Origin: Polysphondylium violaceum | Lineage: Eukaryota | DNA: 36,012 bases | Assembly: GCA_000277445.1 (NCBI GenBank) | Contig: AJWJ01000015.1 | Span: forward strand, 1-36,012 | Direction: 5' to 3' | Shown here: in pieces, positions 4,622-33,533 of the stretch | How the letters are laid out: each line of letters opens with the position of its first letter | How positions within the stretch are numbered: position 1 is the stretch's first letter | Translations under genes and position numbers: made by a program | The notes under the pieces: model-generated | The model's database searches: none | What the model saw: the letters and a program-made list of their open reading frames with translations, nothing else | Told to the model about the DNA's origin: nothing

Positions 4622-7600
4622 ATGATAAAATACATTTTTATCTTGCTCATTGTTTTGAGTGTTTTTGGTTTAGCATTTGCCAATGTTGAAAATGCTGAGG
4701 AAGTTACAGTTTGCGGCACTGGTACATGCGGTTCTTGTGTTGGCGGATGTGATGATAAAAATTTGTGTACAACCGATACATGTATTGCCGGTAAATGTTT
4801 TAATACTCCAAAATTGTGTATGACCATCCTTAGATGTGGTGTCGCAACTTGCGATCCAACTTGTGGTGAATGTGTTGTAACTGGTCCCAAAGATAGCTCT
4901 TGTTGTGACGATGGAAGTGCTTGCACCATTGATACCTGGAGCAACAAAACCGGTTGTATTAATACCCCAAGAAGCTGTGATGATGGAAATCCTTGTACTG
5001 CCGATAGCTGCGATTGTGATAAAGGTTGTCAAAATGTTCCAATCAATGTAGATGATAATGATGCTTGCACCAGAGATTCTTGTTCAAATGGTAAAGTTAT
5101 TCATGAAAAAATCAACTGTGATGATGGAAACTCTTGTACTATTGATAGCTGCGATTGTGTTAAAGGTTGTCAAAACGTTCCAAAGAACTGTAATGATAAC
5201 AACCCATGTACTATCGACTCCTGTTCCAACTCTACTGGCTGTGTAAATACTGCAATTGATGTAAATGATAATGATGCTTGTACTCGTGACTCTTGTTCAA
5301 ATGGTAAAGCTGTTCACGAACAAATCAGCTGTGATGATGGAAATGCTTGTACCGTCGATAGCTGTGATTGTGTCAAAGGTTGCCAACATACCCCAAAGAG
5401 CTGTGATGATAGCAATCCATGTACCATTGACTCTTGTTCCAATTCTACTGGTTGTGTAAATATTCCAATGGATGTAAATGATAATGATGCTTGTACTCGT
5501 GACTCTTGTTCAAATGGTAAAGTTATCCATGAAAAGATTAGCTGTGATGATGGAAATTCCTGTACTATTGATAGCTGTGATTGTGTAAAAGGTTGTATGA
5601 ATATTAATAAGGATTGTAATGATAATAACCCATGTACCATTGATTCTTGTTCCAATTCAACTGGTTGTGTAAATATTCCAATGGATGTAAATGATAATGA
5701 TGTTTGTACCAAAGATTCTTGTTCAAATGGTAAAGTTATTCACGAACCAATTAGCTGTGATGATGGAAACTCATGTACCATTGATAGCTGCGATTGTGTT
5801 AAAGGTTGCCAACATACTCCAAAGAGCTGTGATGATAGCAACCCATGTACCATTGACTCTTGTTCCAATTCTACTGGTTGTGTAAATATTCCAATGGATG
5901 TTAATGATAATGATGTTTGTACCAACGATAAATGTGTAAATGGTAAAGTTGTTCATGAACAAATTAGTTGCGATGATGGAAACTCATGTACCATTGATAG
6001 CTGCGATTGTGTTAAAGGTTGCCAACATACTCCAAAGAACTGTAATGATAATAACCCATGTACTATTGATTCCTGTTCCAATTCAACTGGTTGTGTAAAT
6101 ATTCCAATGGATGTAAATGATAATGATGTTTGTACCCGTGATTCTTGTGTAAATGGTAAAGTTGTTCATGAACCAATTAGCTGTGATGATAAAAACTCTT
6201 GTACCGTCGATAGTTGTGATTGTGTAAAAGGTTGTATGAATATCAACAAAGACTGTAATGATAACAACCCATGTACCATCGATTCTTGCTCAAATTCAAC
6301 TGGTTGTGTCAATATTCCAATGGATGTAAATGATAATGATGTTTGTACCAAAGATTCTTGTTCAAATGGTAAAGTTATTCACGAGCCAATTAGTTGCGAT
6401 GATGGAAACTCATGTACTATTGATAGCTGCGATTGTGTTAAAGGTTGCCAACATACTCCAAAGAGCTGTGATGATAGCAACCCATGTACCATTGATTCTT
6501 GCTCCAACTCTACTGGTTGTGTAAATACCCCAATGGATGTAAATGATAATGATGTTTGCACCCGTGATTCTTGTTCAAATGGTAAAGTTATTCATGAAAA
6601 AATCAACTGTGACGATGGAAACTTGTGTACTATTGATAGCTGTGACTGTGTCAAAGGTTGCCAACATACCCCAAAGAGCTGTGATGATAGCAATCCATGT
6701 ACCATCGATTCTTGCTCAAATTCAACTGGTTGTGTAAATATTCCAATGGATGTAAATGATAATGATGTTTGTACTAAAGATTCTTGTGTAAATGGTAAAG
6801 TTGTCCATGAAAAGATTAGCTGTGATGATGGAAACTCTTGCACCATTGATAGCTGCGATTGCGTAAAAGGTTGTCTCCATATCAATAAGGATTGTAACGA
6901 CTTTAACCCATGTACCATTGACTCTTGCTCCAACTCTACTGGTTGTGTAAATATCAATATGGACGTTAATGATAATGATGTTTGTACCAAAGACTCTTGT
7001 GTGAATGGTAAAGTTATTCACGAACAAATCAGCTGTGATGATGGAAATCCATGTACCCTTGATACCTGTGATTGTGTTAAAGGTTGCCAACATACCCCAA
7101 TCAATGTTGATGATAATGATGCTTGTACCCGTGACTCTTGTGTAAATGGTAAACCTGTCCATGAAAAGATTAGCTGTGATGATAAAAACTCTTGTACCGT
7201 CGATAGCTGTGACTGCGTCAAAGGTTGTATGAATATCAACAAGAACTGTGATGATAACAACCCATGTACCATCGATTCTTGCTCAAATTCAACTGGCTGT
7301 GTCAATATTCCAATGGATGTAAATGATAATGATGTTTGTACCAAAGACTCTTGTGTAAATGGTAAAGTTGTTCATGAAAAGATCACTTGTGATGATGGAA
7401 ATGCCTGTACCATGGATAGCTGCGACTGTGTTAAAGGTTGCCAATACGTTCCAAAGAGCTGTAATGATAACAATGGTTGTACCATCGACTCTTGCTCCAA
7501 CTCTACTGGTTGCATCAATACTCCAATCAATGTAAATGATAATGATGCCTGTACTAAAGATTCTTGCTCAAATGGTTTAGTTATTCACGAAAAGATTACT

Positions 7601-8470
7601 TGTAACGACAACAATGCCTGTACTGATGATAGCTGTGACTGTGTTAAAGGATGTGTCTTTACTCCAAAGAATTGCGGTAAATCAGATAGATGTAATATTG
7701 TAAGTTGCTCAAATTCCACCGGTTGTGTTAGAGTCCCAGTTTCCTGTGACGATTTCAATCCATGCACTGTAGATTCTTGTGATGCAATCAGAGGATGTAT
7801 CAACACACCAATCAACGTTGATGATAATAATTTATGTACCCGTGACTCTTGTGTAAATGGTAAAGTCGTTAATCAACCAATCGTTTGTGATGATAAGAAA
7901 GCCTGTACCAACGACTATTGCGATCCAAAGAGAGGTTGTGTCTTTGCACCAGTAGTTTGTAACTCTACTTCTTGCTCCAAGGGATCATGTTGTGAAGATA
8001 CCGGTAAATGTGTCTATGAAAACACTCGTAACTGTGATGATAACAACAAATGTACCATTGATAAATGTGATCCAGTCAAAGGATGTACCAATACCAATTT
8101 AGTATGCAATGATAATGATCCATGCACTGATGATAGCTGCGATTGTGGTAGAGGTTGTGTCTTTACTCCAAAGAAATGTGAAGGTAAAGATAAATGCTCC
8201 AAATACACTTGTGATAAAGCCTCTGGTCAATGTAAAGCTGAAAAAATTGTCTGTAAACCATCCTCCAATCCATGTTTAGTATCATTCTGTAATCCAGAAT
8301 GTGGTACTTGTGACACCAAACCATTAGTTTGTGATGATGGAAATCCCAAAACCAAAGACTCTTGTAGTATTGCCAAAGGTGGATGCGTCTATGAAGATTG
8401 CAAAGATGATGATGACAAAAAGCCAACTACAGGTGCTAAAACCATTGGTGGATTCAAATGGCCATTTTAA
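4622..8470 (+). CDS. Secreted cysteine-rich repeat protein (1282 aa), built almost entirely of roughly 24-aa C-T-x-D-x-C units (Dicty_CTDC-like), single exon
   Basis: The N-terminus MIKYIFILLIVLSVFGLAFANV is a hydrophobic signal peptide. More than 50 iterations of xxCTxDSCxxxxGCxxxP units follow, about 16% Cys. There is no transmembrane segment and no stop codon or intron across 3.85 kb. The ORF is directly in the six-frame track. Confidence 0.85.
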   Translation: MIKYIFILLIVLSVFGLAFANVENAEEVTVCGTGTCGSCVGGCDDKNLCTTDTCIAGKCFNTPKLCMTILRCGVATCDPTCGECVVTGPKDSSCCDDGSACTIDTWSNKTGCINTPRSCDDGNPCTADSCDCDKGCQNVPINVDDNDACTRDSCSNGKVIHEKINCDDGNSCTIDSCDCVKGCQNVPKNCNDNNPCTIDSCSNSTGCVNTAIDVNDNDACTRDSCSNGKAVHEQISCDDGNACTVDSCDCVKGCQHTPKSCDDSNPCTIDSCSNSTGCVNIPMDVNDNDACTRDSCSNGKVIHEKISCDDGNSCTIDSCDCVKGCMNINKDCNDNNPCTIDSCSNSTGCVNIPMDVNDNDVCTKDSCSNGKVIHEPISCDDGNSCTIDSCDCVKGCQHTPKSCDDSNPCTIDSCSNSTGCVNIPMDVNDNDVCTNDKCVNGKVVHEQISCDDGNSCTIDSCDCVKGCQHTPKNCNDNNPCTIDSCSNSTGCVNIPMDVNDNDVCTRDSCVNGKVVHEPISCDDKNSCTVDSCDCVKGCMNINKDCNDNNPCTIDSCSNSTGCVNIPMDVNDNDVCTKDSCSNGKVIHEPISCDDGNSCTIDSCDCVKGCQHTPKSCDDSNPCTIDSCSNSTGCVNTPMDVNDNDVCTRDSCSNGKVIHEKINCDDGNLCTIDSCDCVKGCQHTPKSCDDSNPCTIDSCSNSTGCVNIPMDVNDNDVCTKDSCVNGKVVHEKISCDDGNSCTIDSCDCVKGCLHINKDCNDFNPCTIDSCSNSTGCVNINMDVNDNDVCTKDSCVNGKVIHEQISCDDGNPCTLDTCDCVKGCQHTPINVDDNDACTRDSCVNGKPVHEKISCDDKNSCTVDSCDCVKGCMNINKNCDDNNPCTIDSCSNSTGCVNIPMDVNDNDVCTKDSCVNGKVVHEKITCDDGNACTMDSCDCVKGCQYVPKSCNDNNGCTIDSCSNSTGCINTPINVNDNDACTKDSCSNGLVIHEKITCNDNNACTDDSCDCVKGCVFTPKNCGKSDRCNIVSCSNSTGCVRVPVSCDDFNPCTVDSCDAIRGCINTPINVDDNNLCTRDSCVNGKVVNQPIVCDDKKACTNDYCDPKRGCVFAPVVCNSTSCSKGSCCEDTGKCVYENTRNCDDNNKCTIDKCDPVKGCTNTNLVCNDNDPCTDDSCDCGRGCVFTPKKCEGKDKCSKYTCDKASGQCKAEKIVCKPSSNPCLVSFCNPECGTCDTKPLVCDDGNPKTKDSCSIAKGGCVYEDCKDDDDKKPTTGAKTIGGFKWPF
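5050..7570 (+). repeat. Tandem array of about 12 copies of a 213-bp (71-aa, three CTDC units) repeat with higher-order A/B alternation, inside the CDS
   Basis: Off-frame ORFs MIMMxxPxILVQMVKLF recur at 5052, 5265, 5691, 6330 and 6543, with spacings of 213, 426, 639 and 213 bp. Antisense ORFs (5314..5712, 6592..6990 and others) repeat with the same period. The protein repeat NDNDxCT(R/K)DSCSNGKVIHExISCDDGNSCTIDSCDCVKGCQHTPKSCDDSNPCTIDSCSNSTGCVNIPMDV is near-identical at nucleotide level between copies. Confidence 0.85.
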
Positions 8471-9995: not shown

Positions 9996-11679
9996 ATGTT
10001 GGAACCAGGTATTATCTTGGAAGAGACAGAAAATGACACTCGTCCACTTTTACAGGAAACTAGTCAAGCCACCTACTATAATAGTGGCAGTAATCCAGAT
10101 TTAACAGGTGCCGCTCCTGGGTCGACATCGGCAAGCAAACCACATATCCCTCACGATCCCTTATCCCCACAACCTTATAAGTTAAGTAGATTTGAAAAAC
10201 TTTCCTATGGTGTGGGCGAGAGTGGTCTATCAGTGTTTCAAATGATCAAGGGTTTCTTTTTAAATTCATTTCTACTAAGTGTTGCTCAACTTGATCCATT
10301 CTACTCGGCAATCATTTTGTTTACCACAAAGTTTGTCGATGCATTTAGTGATATATTAGTTGGAAGTTTTAGTGATAAGACAAAGAGTAGATTTGGTAGA
10401 AGAAGAGTATGGATTTTGTTTGGTTCATTACCTTTGGCCATCTTTTACACAATGTTGTGGTATGTGCCCGACACCAATCAAACACTAAAGGTCATTTATT
10501 ACCAATTTGTCGTCATTGTGCTTAGTGTAGCCTACACTTGTGTGGCTATTCCCTACTCGGCCATGAATGCAGATATTACATCAGACTATGACGAACGTAC
10601 TGAGTTGGCAGGCATTCGTATGATTTCATTAATGATTGGTGGCTTAATAAGTACATTTACACATTCAATCATCATCAAAATATTTAAATCGACCCTCGAT
10701 AATGGAGTCGTAGTTTACGATTTTCAAAAAGGCTATCTATTGTCAGGTGGCATCTGGGGTGGCATTATGCTCATCCCCTTGGCAATAACTTTCTTTGGTA
10801 CAAGAAATATACCAACACAATCATTTAAAGATTCACACATTCCTTTTTTTAAAGGTCTCGTAGTTATGTTTTCAAATCGTGCATTTATTACCGTAACTCT
10901 TTTATATTTCTTTTGTCAAGTAAGTATTAATATTAGTGTATAGTAATGCCATATATAATACTAATCTATTTCATCTATACTTGTATGATTAGATTGCAGT
11001 ACAATTTGTACAAAATAATTTAGTATTATATTGTAAATATGTTGCAAATGCAGAGGATTCGTTCCCTTATATTTTAGCGACATTACAAGTATCTGTATCA
11101 ATATTTATATTTTTTTGGGGTAAGGTGTCAACTTATATTGGCAAAAAGACAGTTTACTATATCGGTGGTGTGTTCTTGTTGGGCGAGTTTATCGGATTAT
11201 ACTTTTTGCCCGCCAACAATAAGTACTTGTTATGGGGTATGGCAGCATTTGGTGGTATCGGTGTATCGGTTGCCTTTCTTATTCCGCTCTCTATGTTGCC
11301 CGATGTTGTCGAACTCGATGAGCTCAAGACTGGTGAGCGTAGAGAAGGTCTTTTCTATAGTTTGTTTTTATTCTTTCAAAAGCTTGGTCTGTCTGTCGGT
11401 TTGGCAGTGAGTAATTTTGCACTTGGTTTGGCAGGATACGAAGCACCCCAAGTTGTCGACGGCACCGATGGTCTATCGACAGAGATCATTGATAACAATG
11501 TCGAGAATCCCGATGTTATCAAAGCACTCCGTTACCTCGTCGGTGTTGTGCCCTCTATTATCGTGTTTTTCAGTTTTATCGCCGTATTCTTTTACCCAAT
11601 CTCTAAAAACTCTCATTCTCATATCAAAGAATTACTAAAAAGAAAAAGAGAGGGTGCTACCATCACTGTCGATGGTTAA
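9996..11679 (+). CDS. MFS_2 / GPH-family (sodium:galactoside-symporter-like, MFSD2-like) membrane transporter; 2 exons: 9996..10919, 10993..11679 (about 536 aa)
   Basis: Exon 1 ORF 9996..10943 contains LSYGVGESGLSVFQMIKGFFLNSFLL and FSDKTKSRFGRRRVWILFGSLP (GPH-family signature region). It ends ...LLYFFCQ at a GTAAGT donor. A 73-nt AT-rich intron ends at TGATTAG. Exon 2 reads IAVQFVQNNLVLYCKYVANAEDSFPYILATLQVSVSIFIFFWGKVSTYIGKK... and continues through ORF 11125..11679 as further transmembrane helices, ending ...KRKREGATITVDG*. Confidence 0.75.
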
Positions 11680-12600: not shown

Positions 12601-15128
12601 ATGGAATCCCTTTTACCAAAAGAAAAAGTTAAAAGACTTGTCGTTATTTATCATTCACTTCCAATTAGTAATGGTAAATTAGATTTAAATGGTAAATATA
12701 GTTATCATATACATTAAAAATTAATAATATGCACTAATTAATAACAACCTATGAATAGTTTGTTCTTATCATGATAGAAATTTAGGCTCATTGGCATCTT
12801 CTGTAAAGGCCCTAAAAGATAATAATAGTAAGTATAAATATATTTAAATACTTTTTAAATTGATATCTAATCTATAAATGAAAATATACAGTTGTAAATA
12901 ATCAAATTTGGGTAGGATGTCCAATTAATGATAAATTAAATGGAATAGAAAGTGAATTGGTTAAAGATGATAATTTTGTACCAGTAAACACCATACCTTC
13001 AAAACTATATGAGGACGCATGTGTAAATTTTTCACATAAATATCTTAGACCAGTGTTTCATTATGATATTTCTAGTACAAAGTTTGATGAAAATCATTGG
13101 AGATCATACATCGAGTTTAATATTCAATTTGCAAGAAAGATTCAATCCATTTATCAAGAGGGTGATATATTATGGATACATGGAATTCAATTATTATTGC
13201 TACCACAGTTCCTGAGGGAACTAATACCAACATCAACTGTTGGTCTCTTTCTCCATTGTCCTTTTCCAGCGGTAGAGGTTTATAGATGTCTACCCACTCG
13301 TAAAAAGTTATTATTAGGTATGTTGGGATCAAATCTGATTGCCTTTCAAGCATACTCTTATTCAAGATACTTTGTACAATCGTGCACTAGAATTTTAGGT
13401 TCCCATGTTGGTTTTGATGGTGTAAAGTACCACAATCCCGATACAAACACAGATATGTTGACAAGGGTATCGGTTTTTTCAGAAGGAATAGATCCGAGTG
13501 AAGTCATCAATGCCTTGGCAGTTAAAGAGTCTCAGTTGAGAATCAAGGAGCTAGAAGAGACATTTAAAGGAAAGAAAATCATCATTTCCAAAGACAAGGG
13601 TGACGCTATAGAGGCTACCAAAAACAAATTACTCGCATTTGAAAGAGTATTGAAAAAGAACCCCAACTGGATTGGTCAAGTTGTATTCTTTTTGGTTTGT
13701 GAACCTTATCCCTCGAGTAGTAGTTGTCCGACAAAAAAGGATAAAATCATATCAAACATTAACGAAACCGTCGCTAGAATCAATGGTGAATATGGTGCCG
13801 TTGGTATCATTCCCATTCAGTATATTAATAGAAATGTAGATTTCTCTGAAATGTGCAGTTTATTTCACGTTTCCGATATATTATTGTCCACTCCATTACG
13901 TGAAGGTATGAACCTCGACACCCATGATTTTGTAGTCTCTCACAGAGATAGTTTATCTAAACCAGGTACTGTCATTTTAAGTGAATTTGATGGTGCATCA
14001 CGTTGTTTTGGTGGTGCAAAGTTAGTTAATCCATGGTGTGTAAATCATATTGCACAGGCAATCACCGAGGCATTGGAGCAGAACACAGATGTAGCACAAA
14101 TTAATCATGATCATAATTTAAATTATGTTTTAAACAACACATCATTTCTTTGGGGAGAAGCATTTCTTTATGATATTCTCTCAATTATCCATCAACCAGT
14201 TAATAACCATACCTCTACTCTTTTGGATATCAAATTATTAGACAAATCCTATAGATTGTCAAAAAAGAGATTACTATTGTTTGATTATGACAGTGCATTC
14301 AAAGCTTTATTACCAACCAGTCCCGAGCTACCATCTTCGCTGCCATCGTTTGGTCCCACCAAAAATAATAGTGTTCAAAATAGAATTTCCAATGTTTTAA
14401 AGAAGTTATCCAAAGATCCAAACAATATCATCTATGTCGTTTCTCGAAGAGATAAAGATACCTTGGAAAATGTATTGGAGAATATTCCCGTTGGTCTGAG
14501 CTGTGAAAATGGAAACTTTTTAAAATCTTCCTCTGGTATTCCAGGCCAGGAGGGGGAATGGGAGAATCTATCCGCTGGCCAAGATATGTCTTGGAGAGAG
14601 GTTGTCAGTCAAATTTTAGAACATTTTTGTGAAAGATTACCTGGATCCAATATAACAACAAACACAATCACCCTCTCATTCTCTTATGAACACTGTCAAA
14701 CAGACTACTCATCAGAGGTTGCACAAGAACTACTCACAACCCTCATTGAAGTAGCCACCAAGTCTCCCATCGATATATCTCACAATAACAAAACCATTGA
14801 AATCCAACCTTCTGGTATAGGCAAAGGTTACTCAATGAAAAAAGTATTGGATGAAAATCCATCCATTGATTTCATTCTCTGTGTCGGTGATGAAAAAACC
14901 GATGAAGATCTATTTGACATTCTCGATGATAACAATTCAAGTCATTATTCCATCTCTGTTGGCAAAAAGAAATCCAATGCCAAATATTATGTTCAAGATA
15001 AATCACATGTAATCAAAACTCTAGAAATGATTTCCAATTTCTCTTCTCTCTCTCCACCAAACAATATGTTTACTTTTAGTCAAAAAATATCTTTTTCAAA
15101 AGATTTAACTTATACTTCAACATTTTAA
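12601..15128 (+). CDS. alpha,alpha-trehalose-phosphate synthase (GT20) fused to a trehalose-phosphatase domain; 3 exons: 12601..12691, 12786..12827, 12892..15128 (about 789 aa)
   Basis: Exon 1 reads MESLLPKEKVKRLVVIYHSLPISNGKLDLN(G), the TPS N-terminal 'RLVVVSNRLP'-type strand, with a GTAAAT donor. A 42-nt micro-exon reads GSLASSVKALKDNN. Exon 3 reads IVNNQIWVGCPI...FVPV...FHY..., then LWIHGIQLLLLPQFLRE, VGLFLHCPFPAVEVYRCLPTRKKLLLGMLGSNLIAFQAYSYSRYF (GT20 core motifs). The C-terminal HAD-like TPP motifs are LLLFDYDSA...VVSRRDKDTLE...GDEKTDEDLF. Confidence 0.8.
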
Positions 15129-15356: not shown

Positions 15357-18300
15357 TTATCGTTTTAAATAAATTGGAATACCATAAGATATACAAGAGC
15401 CACCGACTAAGTATTTCCATTCACATGATTTTCTTGCTATGGCTAGAGCATAACTAATATCCATATCTTGATTATTTATACTATTGACATCTTTTGGATC
15501 GTATTCATTGAGAAACCAAGTTTTAATAAACGATCGAGTTAATCTATCACAATCAGAGGTGGGCACATCAAATATATTGCCAATTACTGCTTTACTGCCA
15601 GCTAAAAGAAAATCTAGAATAATACCAGTGGGTTCAAATTCGCCTTGTTCTTCTAAATGACCGCTCTTACAACCCATTAGGATTGATACACCACATTTTG
15701 AAAGTTTTTGTATTCTGTCGCCACGGAAATACTGTTCACCCGATCCGTGACCCATATAAAAAAAGATTTCATTGTCTTCCAGTGCATTTTGATATTGAGG
15801 TTTGGTGGGAATTTGCCCAGCAATACCTGCCCAACTTGGAAAATGTTTGTTAAACAATGGAATAAAATAATCTTGAGTTTCGCTCAGACCACCACTTGGA
15901 TTGATAATGTAAAAGAGACTCTTGGTATCGACATATTCTCGTTCTTGTTTACAATGGCCGGTGGTCGAGTCTAGTGTTAAATGTCTTTGGAATGCAAACG
16001 ATGGTACTCTGTATGTAGAGGATTGCGAAAATGGTTCCAAAGTTTCAATTGGAAAACTTTGAAGAACTTTATCGATTATAAAAACAACTGGCATTCTTTT
16101 TTGAGAGAGATAAAGTTTGGCGCAGGTTTCTAAAGTCTTGGGGATCTTGCTGTTACTAATAACGCCAGTAGAGTTGGTGTTGAAACAATTTATAAATTCA
16201 TCGATAAACATTTGTAAAACAAATTCAATTTCGCCTTGATTTGGATGATTATCAAAGGTACTCTGGGTATCATAAACTCCAGTTTTTTCATTCTTTAATA
16301 CGATATTGTTAATTTGAGTCTTGGCATCCAATTTACTGTAACCAAGTAGTTCTATAATCATTTCTATTCGAGTTGTAAATGAAAGGAATGGAAGTGATGT
16401 AAATAAATGATCGAGTAAATTGATGTTGAATGTTGGTGATATTGTGGCTGGGGTTTTTTTACTATTGGTACTATTAGAACAAGGTTGGTTCTTTGGGAAT
16501 GAATATTTAGACAACTCTTGTAAAATGTTTTGTTTTGATTTCTGAACCATTGCAATTACATTGGGATTCATTAATGGTCCAATTAGTAAATGTTTTGAAG
16601 AGCCAATGAGTTGATCGATAGAGTTTAAAATATTTTTCATTTCAAACTCTAATACCTTTCTTCTATAGAACCAAGCTTTTTTAGAATCTTCAGTGTTTGA
16701 AAAGTTTGGTGAGTTTTCTTTGTTATTTAATAAATTTTCAATTTCTATAGTCTTTAATCCACCCTTAATTTTATCTAAAATTGAAAAAGAGATTGTTGTC
16801 ATTTTGGTTTCGCCATCATCTTGATTAATGTCATTATTATTATCATCTTCATCTTCTTCAACTTCTTCATCCTCTTCCATTTCCATCTCCATTTCCATTT
16901 CTTCATCATCATCATCACCATTGTTTTCATGTTCAGGATCATTTTGATTATTATCAATTAATGGAATCTTCACTCTTGATAAAATAGGAACTTGATTATT
17001 TGATAATCTACACAATATTAAATATTCACCCTCGTGTGCAATATTACATGATATCCATTGGGATGGTAGTTCAGTAGAGTAAAGTTTCTTTAGTTGATTG
17101 GTAAATGAGGAATCGGTCAAATTTGAAGGAAGATCCACTCCTCCGTTCCAAGAGAATATTGATTGTCTCATTGCCAAACTTTTCTTATCTTGATTATTAT
17201 TTTGATGATGATGTTGAATAATAGTTTGCATATCATGTCTACTTTTAATACCAATTGCTAAGTCTAAATTATTATTATTAATATTAATATATTATAAGCA
17301 AGAATCAAATATTTAAATTTGTTACATACTTAGGAAATGAGTACCAACAAAAGGATTTTGAGTACCAGTTGACAAACATATATATTTACAAATAGATGCA
17401 TTTAATTTAATTAAATTAAATTTACCAATTCTTTGAAAGGCACGAAGGAATAGTTCACGAGCAGAGGCAATATTTGGATGAGGTTTTGAACTAGTGGTAT
17501 TCGAAGTATAATTATCAAAAGACCAAATCTTTTCATGAACATTTTCATCTACATTATAGAAATAAGCCTTTCCCAAATGGAATTCTAATATGGTCAAGGT
17601 GATATCATTTGGTTTGAATGATGTTGTATTTTGATGAATTAAACGGTCAAGACAATCGATGGCACTTTCGTATTTCTTTTCAAGTATTTGTAACTTTGCC
17701 AATTTACCTTGGATTCTAGGCTCATAGGCCAACAATAATCTATAAGACTTTTGATTTCCTTCATTACTATCTTTGGCTGGTGGATTAATTGGTTGGTTTA
17801 CTAAATGATCAATAGTTTCAACTATGGTAAATTCTTTTAATTTTTGACCACCTCCAACATTATTATTATTATTATTATTATTTACATTTATAGATTTTGA
17901 TGATAAAAGCTTCATAAGTCTGGCTTCCTTTGGAGTACTGTCATTATTTGATTCTTGAATTGATAGACTATTACTAAATTTATCTATTAAACTACTAGTA
18001 TTGTTTTTATCTTGTATAATCTCTAGTGTTTTGTTATAATATTGACAAGACTTTGAAACAAGACCTTGTTTACGATAAAGATCACCCAACAGCATATTTG
18101 AAAGTAATAAACAAACTTTAAGACAATATGGTGATTGTTGTTGCTGTTGATTTGATTGATGTCTATTTAATAGGAATCCGACCAATTCCAAGTTTATCTT
18201 GGAGTCAATAAAGTTGTGCTTATTATAAAATAATTCACCAATCTCTACTAAAAACTCACAGGTGATCTTTAGAGATCCATAAATGATGCCAATCAGTAGA

Positions 18301-26430: not shown

Positions 26431-27477
26431 CTATACGTCGATGACTACTTTTCCATTGGCTGTTCGATTTTCAAATGCTTGATAGGCTAGTGCAATTTCA
26501 TCAATTCCGAAATGGAGTGTGTTGTCTATATTTACAGACAAAGTGTGGTTTTCATAGAGCTTGGCGAGCTGGGCTAGATGTGGGCCAGAGGGCACAAATA
26601 GACAATGGTCAAATTGAATGTCTTTGTTGAATTTTGTTTTTATCTGATCACGCTTTGATAGGGTGTCCATCACACCCCTTGGCAGACCTTGGACAACGCC
26701 CTGGCTATCGCTGTGCGAGACAAAGGATCCGTTGAAGCCTATGAGATGTCCTGTGTTGTTTTTCAATGCATGTATGCATTTATCCTCGATTTGCTCGCCA
26801 GTGACACAGTTGAATATAATGTCAAAAGGCTGTTGTGTAGAGTCTTGTAAAATGGATGAAAGGTTGTAGTCGATGACTTGGTCGGCACCTGCAGCTTTTA
26901 GCTTATCGAAATGAATAGGATTGCATGTGGTGGCGACAAAAGGAATGTGGAGATGTTTTTTGAGATAGTTTACAATAAAGAACCCTACACCGCCATTGCC
27001 CCCATTGACCAGCACTCGCTTACTCGATCCGTGCTCAAGTTTAGCTGTGTTGGTGATTGCGTTCAAAGCAGTGAGAGCTGCAAAGGGCACCGAGGCAGAT
27101 TCTCTATGACTCAAGTTTTTGGGCTTCAATGATATCTCACTCTCATCCAAGAGAACATATTGTGCATGAGAACCATTGGAAAATGGTGCATTTGAGCCCC
27201 AAACCAAGTCACCTATATTATAATCCCATACATCTTGACCAACCTCTACAATTTCCCCACTACATTCTCTTCCCAAAATAATTGGCAACTCTTGATTTGT
27301 CAATCCAACTATACTTTTAGCATAACCCTTTCTCATAACATTATCCAAAGGATTGATACTAGTTGCACAAACTTTAATTAAAATCTGTGATTTCTCTGGT
27401 TTAGGGAGATGAACTTTACTTGATATCTCTAAATTACTTAATGATTCTCCATATTGATTCAACAATACTCCTTTCAT
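26431..27477 (-). CDS. Zn-dependent alcohol dehydrogenase / quinone-oxidoreductase-like MDR superfamily protein (348 aa), single exon
   Basis: ORF 26431..27477(-) starts with a GroES-like N-terminal domain (LIKVCATSINPLDNVMRKGY...GRECSGEIVEVG), followed by a Rossmann nucleotide-binding fold VLVNGGNGGVGFFIVNYLK (GxGxxG). Overall architecture resembles RTN4IP1/zeta-crystallin-type MDRs. Confidence 0.85.
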   Translation of the reverse strand: MKGVLLNQYGESLSNLEISSKVHLPKPEKSQILIKVCATSINPLDNVMRKGYAKSIVGLTNQELPIILGRECSGEIVEVGQDVWDYNIGDLVWGSNAPFSNGSHAQYVLLDESEISLKPKNLSHRESASVPFAALTALNAITNTAKLEHGSSKRVLVNGGNGGVGFFIVNYLKKHLHIPFVATTCNPIHFDKLKAAGADQVIDYNLSSILQDSTQQPFDIIFNCVTGEQIEDKCIHALKNNTGHLIGFNGSFVSHSDSQGVVQGLPRGVMDTLSKRDQIKTKFNKDIQFDHCLFVPSGPHLAQLAKLYENHTLSVNIDNTLHFGIDEIALAYQAFENRTANGKVVIDV

Positions 27478-28449: not shown

Positions 28450-29933
28450 ATGATGAGTAAAATTACATTACTTGTATCAATAATATTATTAGTTGGATAT
28501 TCACAAGTGAGTAATGCAGGTACACCTGACCAATGGAGTCAAAGAACTATATATCAGTTGCTTACCGATAGATTCTCGCAAACTGTAAATTCAAGTACAC
28601 CATGTCCAGATCTATCCACCTACTGTGGTGGCACATTTGATGGCATTGCTGCTCATTTAGATTATATCCAAGGCATGGGTTTTGACGCCATATGGATATC
28701 ACCTGTCATTGAAAACTATCCTGTAGGTTGTTGTTGTTATTATAGTATATAGTAGGCAGTTATCTAACATTAATAATCATCATAAAGGGAGGGTATCATG
28801 GCTATTGGCAAACAAACTTTTATGCAATCAATGATAATTTTGGATCGAGTAGTGATCTATTGAATCTAATCAAAGCATGTCATACTAGAGGCATTTGGGT
28901 AATGTTGGATGTCGTTGCCAATCATATTGGACCTGTAAACTATGACTACTCTACCATTGTTCCATTCAACAATACCGAACACTACCACAATTGCACTGGA
29001 TGTCCCAGTCAATGTACAATTGAGGATTTTGATGACTATGCACAAGTTGAGCATTGCAGATTGGCCGGATTACCAGATCTCGACCAAGATAATCAATATG
29101 TCAGACAAACACTCCTCGACTGGATCCAAGACATTGTCGAGCAATACTCTTTTGACGGTATTCGTATCGACACCGTCCCCGAGGTGAAAATGGACTTTTG
29201 GCAAGAATACAACCAATACGCCGGCGTCTATGCCGTGGGCGAGGTGTACAATGGCAACAACAGCTACGTGGGCGAGTACACAGAAGTCATGGACGGTGTA
29301 TTGAGCTATCCCATGTTTTTCACACTCCGTAACGTGTTTGCTCAACAACAGTCTATGTACCAGATCCAATCCACCTTTCAGCAATACCAACAATACATGA
29401 AGAACCTCACACTCATGGGCACCTTTATCGACAACCACGACCAGGTCAGATTCCTCAACGAACAACCCGACATACTCCTCTACAAAAACGCCATCACCTA
29501 CACCCTCATGGCACAAGGAATCCCCATCATCTACTATGGCACTGAACAAGGCTTTGACGGTAGCTCTGATCCAAATAACAGAGAACCCCTCTGGACCACC
29601 CAATTCAACCAAAATGCCGAGCTCTACCAATACATCAAGCTGATCAATCAATTCCGTGCCTCTAATCCACAATACCAAACCTATGACCAAGTACAACGTT
29701 ATGCCGATAATAGCTTCTATGCTTTTAGCAGAGGTCAAGTGTTTGTTGCCCTCACCAACGGTGGTTCCAATCAAGCCCAAATCATGAGAAATATCACCTA
29801 TCATCCATACACTGATGGTACCACTCTCTGTAATCTATTCTATCCAACCGAAGATTGTATTAAAGTCACTGACAACTCTTTTGAAGTCTATCTAGACTAT
29901 GGTGAATCTAAAATCTACTATCCAATAAACTAA
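28450..29933 (+). CDS. amyA: Secreted GH13 alpha-amylase of the fungal Taka-amylase type; 2 exons: 28450..28722, 28788..29933 (about 472 aa)
   Basis: Exon 1 reads MMSKITLLVSIILLVGYSQVSNA (signal peptide), then TPDQWSQRTIYQLLTDRFS...YCGGTFDGIAAHLDYIQGMGFDAIWISPVIENYP, and ends at a GTAGGT donor. After a 65-nt intron, exon 2 reads GGYHGYWQTNFYAIN...RGIWVMLDVVANHIG...FDGIRIDTVPEV...GEVYNG...FIDNHDQVRF. These align block-for-block with Aspergillus oryzae Taka-amylase A catalytic regions I-IV. Confidence 0.85.
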
Positions 29934-30170: not shown

Positions 30171-31058
30171 TTAAATAATAATACAATTGCCATTCTTCTT
30201 TTTATCTTTTTTCTTTTTATCTTTTTTATCTGTTTCTTGATTAGCAGTTGTATTGGGGGTACCATCAGTACCTTTTTTATCAATACCTCTAGATTCGAGA
30301 ACTATATCAATAGCTGCGTTAAAGACTTCTTCTAAACCTTGACGAGTTTTTGCAGAGACTTCTAAATATTTGGCAGCTTTAATTTGTTTGGCCATTGAAA
30401 GACCCATATCTGGTGTGACTGGTTCAAATTTACCAGAATTTGGATCTGGGTGTTGAGCTTCACGTAAATCTATTTTAGTACCGACAAGGATATGTGGAAT
30501 ATCTGGGATATAATGATTAACTTCTGGTGCCCACTATAGTAATGTTTAAAATCATATTAATATACTGTTTTTGTCATCACCATCTCTTAATGATGGATGA
30601 GCGAATGAAGAAAATAAAATAATTACTTTATCTCTAATAGCTTCATAGGAAGATTGACTGATAGTACTAAAACAAAGAAGTACAACATCTGCACCTGGGT
30701 ATGAAAGTGGTCTTAAACGATCGTATTCCTCTTGACCAGCAGTATCCCAAAGATGAATTTTAATGTCTTCATTTCCTCTCTTTCTAGTAGCTGTATAGTT
30801 TTCAAAAACAGTTGGAACGTAATCTACTGGGAAATCATTTTGTGCATAACAAATTAAGAGACATGTCTTACCGACGGCACCATCACCGACAATAACCAAT
30901 TTTACTCTTGTTGCTGCTCCTGAACCTGCATCCTATCATAGCAAAATTTAAAAGGAAAAAAAAAATGAAAAAAAAAAAAATAAAAAAAAATAAAAAAAAA
31001 GGTTATTATTTGATTTTAGATGGTTATAGAGTAGAGTAATAATATTTACTTCAGCCAT
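30171..31058 (-). CDS. racE: Rho-family small GTPase, RacE-like; 3 exons: 31050..31058 (9-nt exon, MAE), 30627..30932, 30171..30533 (about 226 aa)
   Basis: ATGGCTGAA|GTAAAT is followed by a 117-nt intron. CTATGATAG|[102 protein letters not shown]|GTAATT is followed by a 93-nt intron. CTATAG|[83 protein letters not shown]...[14 protein letters not shown]. It carries the P-loop, switch I/II and a Rho insert, a polybasic tail and a CaaX box (CIII). The N-terminal M-x-E-D-x-GSGA-TRVKLV matches D. discoideum RacE as I recall it. Confidence 0.8.
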
Positions 31059-32221: not shown

Positions 32222-32294
<73 letters not shown>

Positions 32295-32344: not shown

Positions 32345-33533
32345 ATGGGTATTACTTCATCCACAGAGCAAAAATCAAATATACAGTCGAGCAATGCTAA
32401 TGCGGATCAACAGCAACAGAGATACATTCAGCAACAGCTACAACAACACCAACAAAAGCAATTGCAACAACAACAACAGCAACAACAGCAATTACAACAA
32501 CAGCAGCAACAACAACAATCATATAATCAAAAGATTAATCAAACTACAGTCAGACCACAACAACAACAACAGCCTTATAAACCTTTGCCTATATATTTAA
32601 CTCCACAACAACAACAATACTATAGACAACAGCAACAGCAACAACAAGGCTCTAAATCATATGGACAGAGCATGGGTCAATCCCCTAGATCTATACCCTC
32701 AAGTGGTAGCAATACAGGTAAAACTCCTTCAGAGTTTAATGTACTAAGTATGCTCTATACTATTAAAACCACGTACTCTACAGTATACCTCTATTAACAC
32801 AACAATACTTTTTAGTGTCACCACCATCGTCACCTTTGGTAGGTCCAATGGCAAATACAGCAATCATCGATCCACCCATACCAACAGTTTTTACATGGAC
32901 AGGAGGAGGAAAGGAAGTTTATATTTCAGGATCATTTAACAATTGGAAAGAAAAGATACCATTATCACACAGTGAAAAGGATTTTACTCTTATCTATAAC
33001 CTACCACCAGGTGTTCATCAATATAAATACATTGTCGATGGTAAATGGATTCATTCAACCGAGCAACCAGTCGCTGCCGACATCAAAGGTAATCTTTTAA
33101 ATTTTGTTGAAGTTAAATCAAAAGACCCAAGTAATGATTTAAATACATTAAAATGTAATACTCTTATTATTATTATTATTATTACAATGAACACCATGAT
33201 ATTAACAGACACACAATATACACCACTATAGTATCAACTACACCACCAGGATCATATAGTAAAAATATACCAGAGGAGGAGTTTCAAAAGATTCCACCAC
33301 CTTCTTTACCACCTCATCTAAGAAGGGCATTGTTAAATACTCAACCATCAACAGAGGATCCAACTCTTTTACCCTTACCTCATCATGTAATGCTTAATCA
33401 TCTCTATTCTTTACCAAGAAAGGATAAAGTTACAATTTTAGGTGTGACACATAGATACAAAACTAAATTTGTAACAACAGTACTTTATAAACCTGTAAAT
33501 GAATCTTCATTGGATAATTTAGATAGTAGTTAA
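32345..33533 (+). CDS. prkab: AMP-activated protein kinase beta subunit (CBM48 glycogen-binding domain plus the C-terminal alpha/gamma-interaction domain); 3 exons: 32345..32747, 32816..33154, 33232..33533 (about 347 aa)
   Basis: Exon 1 starts MGITSSTEQK (an N-myristoylation-type MG start, as in AMPK beta), followed by a long polyQ tract. A GTATGC donor (phase 1) and TTTAG acceptor lead to (M)SPPSS...PTVFTWTGGGKEVYISGSFNNWKEKIPLSHSEKDFTLIYNLPPGVHQYKYIVDGKWIHSTEQPVAADIKGNLLNFVEVKSKD (CBM48, near-identical motif order to human PRKAB1/2). A GTAATA donor and 77-nt intron precede (L)STTPPGSYSKN...PPSLPPHLRRALLN...LPLPHHVMLNHLYSLPRKDKVTILGVTHRYKTKFVTTVLYKP*. Confidence 0.8.
32420..32535 (+). repeat. 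(CAA/CAG)n polyglutamine-coding repeat inside the AMPK-beta first exon
   Basis: caacagcaacagagatacattcagcaacagctacaacaacaccaacaaaagcaattgcaacaacaacaacagcaacaacagcaattacaacaacagcagcaacaacaacaa encodes QQQQRYIQQQLQQHQQKQLQQQQQQQQQLQQQQQQQQ. Confidence 0.9.

Follow-up and report, generated by a model that had tools for sequence, protein, structure and literature searches.

The 213-bp repeat array of a Polysphondylium violaceum gene is very probably an old, selectively maintained core of an EcmA/EcmB-family protein

When a tandem array inside a coding sequence keeps strict register, has its DNA been homogenised recently, or is it an old protein repeat that selection has preserved? This question is raised by a stretch of AT-rich eukaryotic DNA from Polysphondylium violaceum (GenBank assembly GCA_000277445.1, contig AJWJ01000015.1, positions 1 to 36,012 of the forward strand; the whole 36,012 nucleotides are referred to hereafter as the window), in which a 213-bp unit recurs within the gene g731. 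An original prediction, made without database searches, read the array as a coding minisatellite shaped by recent unequal crossing-over or gene conversion. The analysis described here indicates, with considerable confidence, that the array is the old, selectively maintained repeat core of g731, a co-ortholog of EcmA/EcmB, and not a recently homogenised minisatellite. The parts of the gene are listed below; the units are numbered U1 to U13, and their constituent modules a, b and c are described further on (CDS, coding sequence; aa, amino acids; TRF, Tandem Repeats Finder).

4622..8470, forward strand: intron-less complete CDS of g731, an EcmA/EcmB-family matrix protein, probably ecmAB2; 1282 aa plus stop
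4622..4684, forward strand: predicted signal peptide MIKYIFILLIVLSVFGLAFA, followed by NVENAEE; read by eye
4685..5023, forward strand: N-terminal Cys-rich region outside the array, ending in a c-type and a b-type module; from module typing
5024..6940, forward strand: U1-U9, nine full 213-bp units of 71 aa, each consisting of modules a + b + c; from TRF, repeat search and module typing
6941..7081, forward strand: U10, truncated, 141 bp, modules a + b only; from the spacing of 141, the translation and the module string '...abcababc...'
7082..7720, forward strand: U11, U12 and U13, the last degenerate and 67-72% identical to the other units; from repeat search and pairwise identity
7721..8470, forward strand: divergent CTDC-like C-terminal modules, then a short acidic/basic tail; from translation and Pfam

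The presence of a 213-bp tandem array inside a coding sequence was confirmed. Thirteen in-register copies span 5024-7720 within the forward-strand open reading frame (ORF) 4622-8470, whose frame is open throughout (1282 codons, all 13 units included). TRF reported a 213-bp period at 5024-7100 (9.8 copies, 83% matches, score 2699) and in a second block at 7092-7654 (2.6 copies), and also gave a 72-bp sub-period, while a repeat search returned 13 copies at a spacing of 213, with a single spacing of 141. Self-identity was 0.84 at a lag of 213 bp, as compared with 0.22-0.35 at off-register lags. The register of the 13 copies and the self-identity at lag 213 demonstrate that the periodicity is real and far beyond chance. 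Between U10 and U11 (junction 7082), exactly one 72-bp c module (24 residues) has been lost in frame, indicating that rearrangement also took place in the single-module register, besides the 213-bp register. A further likeness was seen between two junctions, that of the N-terminal b module with U1 (4975-5145) and that of U10b with U11a (7033-7203), which are 81% identical, the top value of that repeat family, and both encode '...PINVDDNDACTRDSC'. This may be the trace of an old duplication of ~2 kb within the array.

Homogenisation at the nucleotide level was not borne out. Pairwise nucleotide identity among U1-U12 ranged from 74 to 96%, with a mean of only 85% and U4/U7 as the best pair (96%). 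Variation was found at 89 of the 213 unit columns, each unit having its own substitution pattern, and the longest exact tract common to any units was 77 bp. Across the 11 full units, differences affected 0.45 of synonymous sites (pS) as compared with 0.10 of nonsynonymous sites (pN), a pN/pS of 0.22; after correction, divergence amounted to ~0.6-0.7 substitutions per silent site. About half of the differences between units were silent, though silent sites make up about a fifth of sites, and 31 of the 45 codon columns that are invariant in amino acid contained more than one codon. The same codon was used at identical residues in 76% of cases, as compared with 60% expected from the codon usage of the gene, and several unit pairs, at 0.65-0.67, were close to the codon-usage equilibrium of 0.60. 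The units thus differ chiefly at synonymous sites, the outcome that the original prediction had itself set against recent homogenisation. Taken together, the pS and pN values, the 31 silent-polymorphic columns, the extent of codon reuse and the 77-bp maximum leave both 'recent' homogenisation and the term 'coding minisatellite' unsupported. We conclude from this substitution pattern that the units are old duplicates, their likeness apparently kept by purifying selection on the protein together with strong codon bias.

The contrary reading, in which unequal crossing-over or gene conversion recently homogenised the units and left a minisatellite of unstable copy number and a collapse-prone assembly, appears unlikely. 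It accounts for the strict 213-bp register across 13 units and for the clustering of units by gene rather than across paralogues, and signs of exchange between units are also in its favour. When the order of polymorphic sites was shuffled and the excess of long concordant runs was scored, mosaic tracts exceeded the permutation expectation in 11 of 55 unit pairs (p <= 0.013). Five high-identity tracts of 96-203 bp, 96-99% identical, were found, and as a candidate for recent exchange or duplication the longest ranks first:

5654..5856, forward strand: high-identity tract of 203 bp, 97.5% identical to 6293-6495 (U4 versus U7, lag 639); from tract search

Exact sub-tracts of 77 and 74 bp lie within this pair of segments. 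Two observations weigh against a wholly old origin of the present units. The proteins of U4 and U7 are identical and their DNA differs at only 8 of 213 bases, a near-identity that implies at least one recent event. In module a, pS was 0.23, as compared with 0.59 in module b and 0.56 in module c, and the same-codon fraction of module a was 0.86, as compared with 0.58 expected. Such silent-site uniformity in module a points to some local homogenisation at the nucleotide level or to extra constraint. The mosaic runs, the five tracts and the uniformity of module a are therefore consistent with some patchy exchange or partial re-duplication, on an old background. However, a recently homogenised minisatellite is difficult to reconcile with a pS of 0.45 at a mean unit identity of 85%, with unit pairs near codon-usage equilibrium, with the 77-bp limit on exact repeats, or with the occurrence in the paralogue of a unit variant ('B', see below) that suggests an origin before the gene duplication. 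Of the unequal crossing-over or gene conversion first proposed, slow patchy exchange and growth by duplication of three-module blocks are retained, but recency is not.

The units had also been described as alternating between two types, A and B, in higher-order periods. Two motif variants in irregular order were indeed present: GCQHTPKSCDDSNPCT occurs in units 2, 4, 7 and 8, and GCMNINKDCNDNNPCT in units 3 and 6 (near-variants of it are in units 9 and 11), at spacings of 213, 426 and 639 bp. The higher-order period, by contrast, was only weak. Identity was 0.866 at a lag of 639, 0.869 at 1278 and 0.837 at 213, with 0.836-0.846 at other multiples; the excess is slight and is due for the most part to U4/U7, and the order of variants is irregular. 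At most a faint 639-bp super-period is indicated in the g731 array.

Recurring off-frame ORFs had been taken as a mark of near-identity between units. ORFs of 64 codons were found at 5052, 5265, 5691, 6330 and 6543, as predicted, but rather than being identical they shared only 62-89% of amino acids and 84-96% of nucleotides, and just 5 of some 12 units retained the ORF. On the antisense strand, ORFs of 132, 132 and 146 codons likewise exist, but they are not special: in synonymous-codon shuffles of g731, stop-free runs in the antisense and off-frame frames were equal or longer. Because codon-preserving shuffles reproduce such frames, the open off-frame and antisense frames are by-products of the Cys/Asp/Asn-rich composition. 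That they represent overlapping genes was considered and rejected, given that the shuffles reproduce them and that the ORFs differ between units.

What protein, then, does the array encode? The gene is already known: it is a published matrix gene of the EcmA/EcmB family, and the array forms its repeat core. The product of 4622-8470 is identical to g731 at 1282 of 1282 aa in the 'ecmAB homologs' alignment (supplement 1 of PMC7259674). Against Dicty_CTDC (Pfam PF00526, 'slime mold repeat'), for which the Pfam gathering threshold is 27 bits, g731 scored 993.6 bits (E = 0) over 41 stretches, and its in-register translation contains the module of ~24 residues with the pattern C-x5-C-T-x-D-x-C-x5-C. 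The Dicty_CTDC family includes the ecmA, ecmB, pdiA and psi genes, listed as matrix proteins. In members of the EcmA/EcmB family, Cys-rich repeats come after a signal peptide, and EcmA is thought to strengthen the stalk (PMC4406040). The layout of g731 fits this family: a putative signal peptide (short basic start, hydrophobic core and A-F-A motif, judged by eye) is followed almost wholly by Cys-rich 24-aa repeats. Tandem Cys-rich 24-residue repeats have been a hallmark of the EcmA/EcmB family since its first description in the 1980s; a search of the accessible literature for an account of the 24-aa repeat in ecmA found none.

Narita et al. (2020, Genome Biol Evol, PMC7259674) describe two P. 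violaceum genes, ecmAB1 and ecmAB2, which the published tree places together as the sister clade of ecmA and ecmB from D. discoideum. The placement of g731 in the family draws on identity in the published alignment and on an N-terminal c-a-b-c module order as in EcmA, EcmB and g7103; the tree is the published one. The published primers for quantitative polymerase chain reaction (qPCR) of ecmAB1 translate to ACTRDS and HIPISC, and HIPISC is present in g7103 and absent from g731. In the window, these qPCR primers had no exact match, one of them matching only with 2 mismatches, and the ecmAB1 promoter primers had no match. The identification of g731 as ecmAB1 was rejected on these grounds. Since the primers assign ecmAB1 to g7103, g731 is ecmAB2 by elimination, and is probably the gene published under that name. 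The published stalk expression is that of ecmAB1, and thus of g7103 (PMC7259674).

Comparison of g731 with its relatives bears on how the array grew. Module typing of four proteins gave the following strings:

g731: c b (abc)x9 ab (abc)x3 ..., period 71 aa
g7103: c (abc)x5 ..., period 71 aa
EcmB: c abc, then (cca)n, period 72 aa
EcmA: c abc, then (ccaaa)n, period 120 aa

A c-a-b-c start was common to all four by this typing, and the periods indicate that a multi-module supra-unit is a family trait in which the amplified block varies by lineage. EcmB (ST310) and EcmA (ST430), of the prestalk and stalk matrix of D. discoideum, are secreted and consist almost wholly of 24-aa Dicty_CTDC modules, as does g731. 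Each has one N-terminal a-b-c block, including a 'C[DL]C' b module, and each has a multi-module period, but the amplified block is cca in EcmB, ccaaa in EcmA and abc in g731. The P. violaceum pair is not in one-to-one orthology with EcmA and EcmB, being a sister clade in the published tree. The paralogue g7103 (ecmAB1) resembles g731 in its signal peptide, N-terminal c-a-b-c modules and 71-aa abc period, but is shorter (821 aa, ~7 units). The proteins are described by Narita et al. (2020; PMC7259674) as mostly 24-aa repeats annotated as Dicty_CTDC, as found here for g731; the accessible part of that paper contains no account of a 71-aa supra-unit of three modules, and mentions neither unit variants nor silent-site divergence.

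Amino acid identity between units was 83% within g731, as compared with 70% between g731 and g7103, and the nearest neighbour of every g731 unit lies inside g731. One way to obtain this pattern is for g731 and g7103 to have expanded their abc arrays independently after duplication, by birth-and-death and with gene conversion unneeded. That EcmA and EcmB keep one N-terminal abc block and have amplified other blocks, ccaaa and cca respectively, makes lineage-specific amplification the rule in this clade, and is in keeping with such a history. However, the 'B' variant (GCM[N/H]INKDCNDNN; MNINKDCNDNN-type) is found in both paralogues: it occurs once in g7103, in unit B5, which is closest to g731 unit 3. 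Moreover, the short mosaic tracts of g731 are more easily explained as exchange between existing units. Wholly independent expansion is therefore possible, but we consider it the weaker account. The occurrence of the 'B' variant in both paralogues suggests that two or more unit types were already present when g731 and g7103 arose by duplication, and that turnover within each gene was slow thereafter. With regard to concerted evolution, near-identical units, long exact tracts and low synonymous divergence were not found in the g731 array. Greater likeness within the array than between paralogues was found, with one exception (B5-A3), and independent expansion would give the same result.

The three modules of a unit differ in their cysteines. 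Module c is the canonical form (24 aa, 4 Cys); in module a (23 aa, 2 Cys), cysteines 1 and 4 have been lost; and module b (24 aa, 5 Cys) has an extra cysteine in 'CDC' ('DSCDCVKGC'). AlphaFold2, run on units 3-5 with a 28-row alignment, predicted one beta-hairpin per module, with two 6-residue strands each, at a mean predicted local distance difference test score (pLDDT) of 93. A sequence search of the PDB gave no meaningful match. From the model we infer that the hairpins are disulfide-stapled, and they would align into a long rod whose length scales with unit number. In bacterial CTDC arrays, 2-Cys modules in which C1 and C4 are jointly lost were seen, as were single 4-Cys modules flanked by 2-Cys ones. 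The bacterial 2-Cys variants suggest that pairing within a module is C1-C4 and C2-C3. The cysteine count per unit is 11 in g731, an odd number, as compared with 12 in g7103, owing to 'STGCC' (unit column 3); apart from this extra cysteine of g7103, no fixed difference separates the two arrays. With an odd count, each g731 unit may have a single unpaired thiol, located in 'CDC' of module b.

Resemblances outside the dictyostelids proved to be of limited weight. In a homologue search with the whole of g731, the matches were confined to CTDC arrays of bacteria and of a few transcriptomes, none above 48% identity. When EcmB was queried with its own sequence, EcmB was not returned; g731 and g7103 were likewise not returned from that protein database, although the P. 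violaceum transporter encoded beside g731 is present there. Dictyostelid CTDC matrix proteins appear to be absent from it or unreachable in it. The shortage of dictyostelid hits therefore stems from the database itself, and the bacterial 'best hits' carry no evolutionary meaning. Horizontal transfer, which these hits might bring to mind, was rejected because the database returns no dictyostelid CTDC proteins, not even EcmB. The bacterial Dicty_CTDC arrays (from Bacteroidota, with a type IX secretion system (T9SS) sorting domain, and from Myxococcota) share the 24-aa module and the 2-Cys variant with g731 at identities of <=48%, but the examples read are monotonous single-module repeats that lack the abc supra-unit and are joined to further bacterial domains. 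Foldseek matched the g731 model best (E 9e-5) to the Cys-rich part of the Gal/GalNAc lectin heavy chain from Entamoeba histolytica (PDB 9gjf and related entries). Both are elongated, amoebozoan, Cys-rich beta-hairpin repeats, but a template modelling score (TM-score) of 0.23 and an identity of 15-20% amount to a local resemblance between small hairpins rich in disulfides and give no evidence of homology.

These results are consistent with the following history of the g731 array. Tandem duplication must have built the array in blocks of three modules, by unequal crossing-over and probably before the g731/g7103 gene duplication. Thereafter the units would have been preserved by purifying selection while their silent sites diverged, and turnover would have been slow and within the gene, with only occasional short exchanges of about 100-200 bp. 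Each module would form a beta-hairpin, the hairpins in line would make a rod, and the number of units would set its length. By analogy with the family, the protein is presumably secreted and reinforces the stalk or sheath matrix. Parts of this account are open to objection: the assignment to ecmAB2 is by elimination, the reporter and qPCR work in the accessible text of PMC7259674 concerns ecmAB1 (g7103) and not g731, the rod is a predicted shape, and the copy number comes from one assembly (Roche 454). More speculatively, and with little expectation that all three hold, lineage-specific blocks might tune matrix architecture, a free thiol left in each g731 unit might cross-link the stalk matrix, and unit number might differ among P. 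violaceum isolates and so alter stalk mechanics.

The consequence is chiefly one of annotation, in that the repeats belong to the core of a matrix gene already in the literature. The array is very probably no recent, unstable minisatellite, and the gene is suitable for comparative work. Its amplification unit, a three-module block that differs between lineages, is a neat example of repeat-protein growth, and the silent-site test quickly tells old protein repeats from homogenised DNA repeats.

Could the array or its copy number be an artefact of a short-read draft assembly? The published P. violaceum genome is a Roche 454 draft of 2012 in 1,228 contigs, and it is the single assembly examined. 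However, the frame is open through 13 units and 1282 codons, and multi-module periods of this kind recur in the paralogue and in the D. discoideum relatives. The high risk of collapse that had been forecast was not substantiated either: with unit-specific substitutions at 89 of 213 columns and a longest exact repeat of 77 bp, collapse is unlikely. The usual read length of Roche 454 sequencing is well above 77 bp. An artefact is thus extremely improbable, and the assembly of the g731 array is probably trustworthy.

The remainder of the window contains the following genes, identified with Pfam (MFS, major facilitator superfamily; TPR, tetratricopeptide repeat):

9996-11679: MFS_2 transporter
12957-15128: trehalose-6-phosphate synthase/phosphatase fusion
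15357-17231, reverse strand: separase (peptidase C50), with an upstream TPR-containing exon
26431-27477, reverse strand: zinc-type alcohol dehydrogenase
28860-29933: alpha-amylase

The adjoining MFS protein is 99% identical to P. violaceum CYY_000733, and in base composition the window agrees with the P. violaceum genome. At the D. discoideum and D. purpureum loci, no CTDC gene was found beside the MFS gene, a tblastn search of these loci with one 71-aa unit gave no match, and the gene order upstream of the MFS gene differs from that in P. violaceum. Elsewhere in the window, a run of ~45 A (30956-31000), a perfect (ATAG)18 microsatellite (32222-32294) and a CAA-rich, polyglutamine-type repeat (32408-32518, inside the ORF 32345-32797) were observed; these are typical dictyostelid simple repeats.

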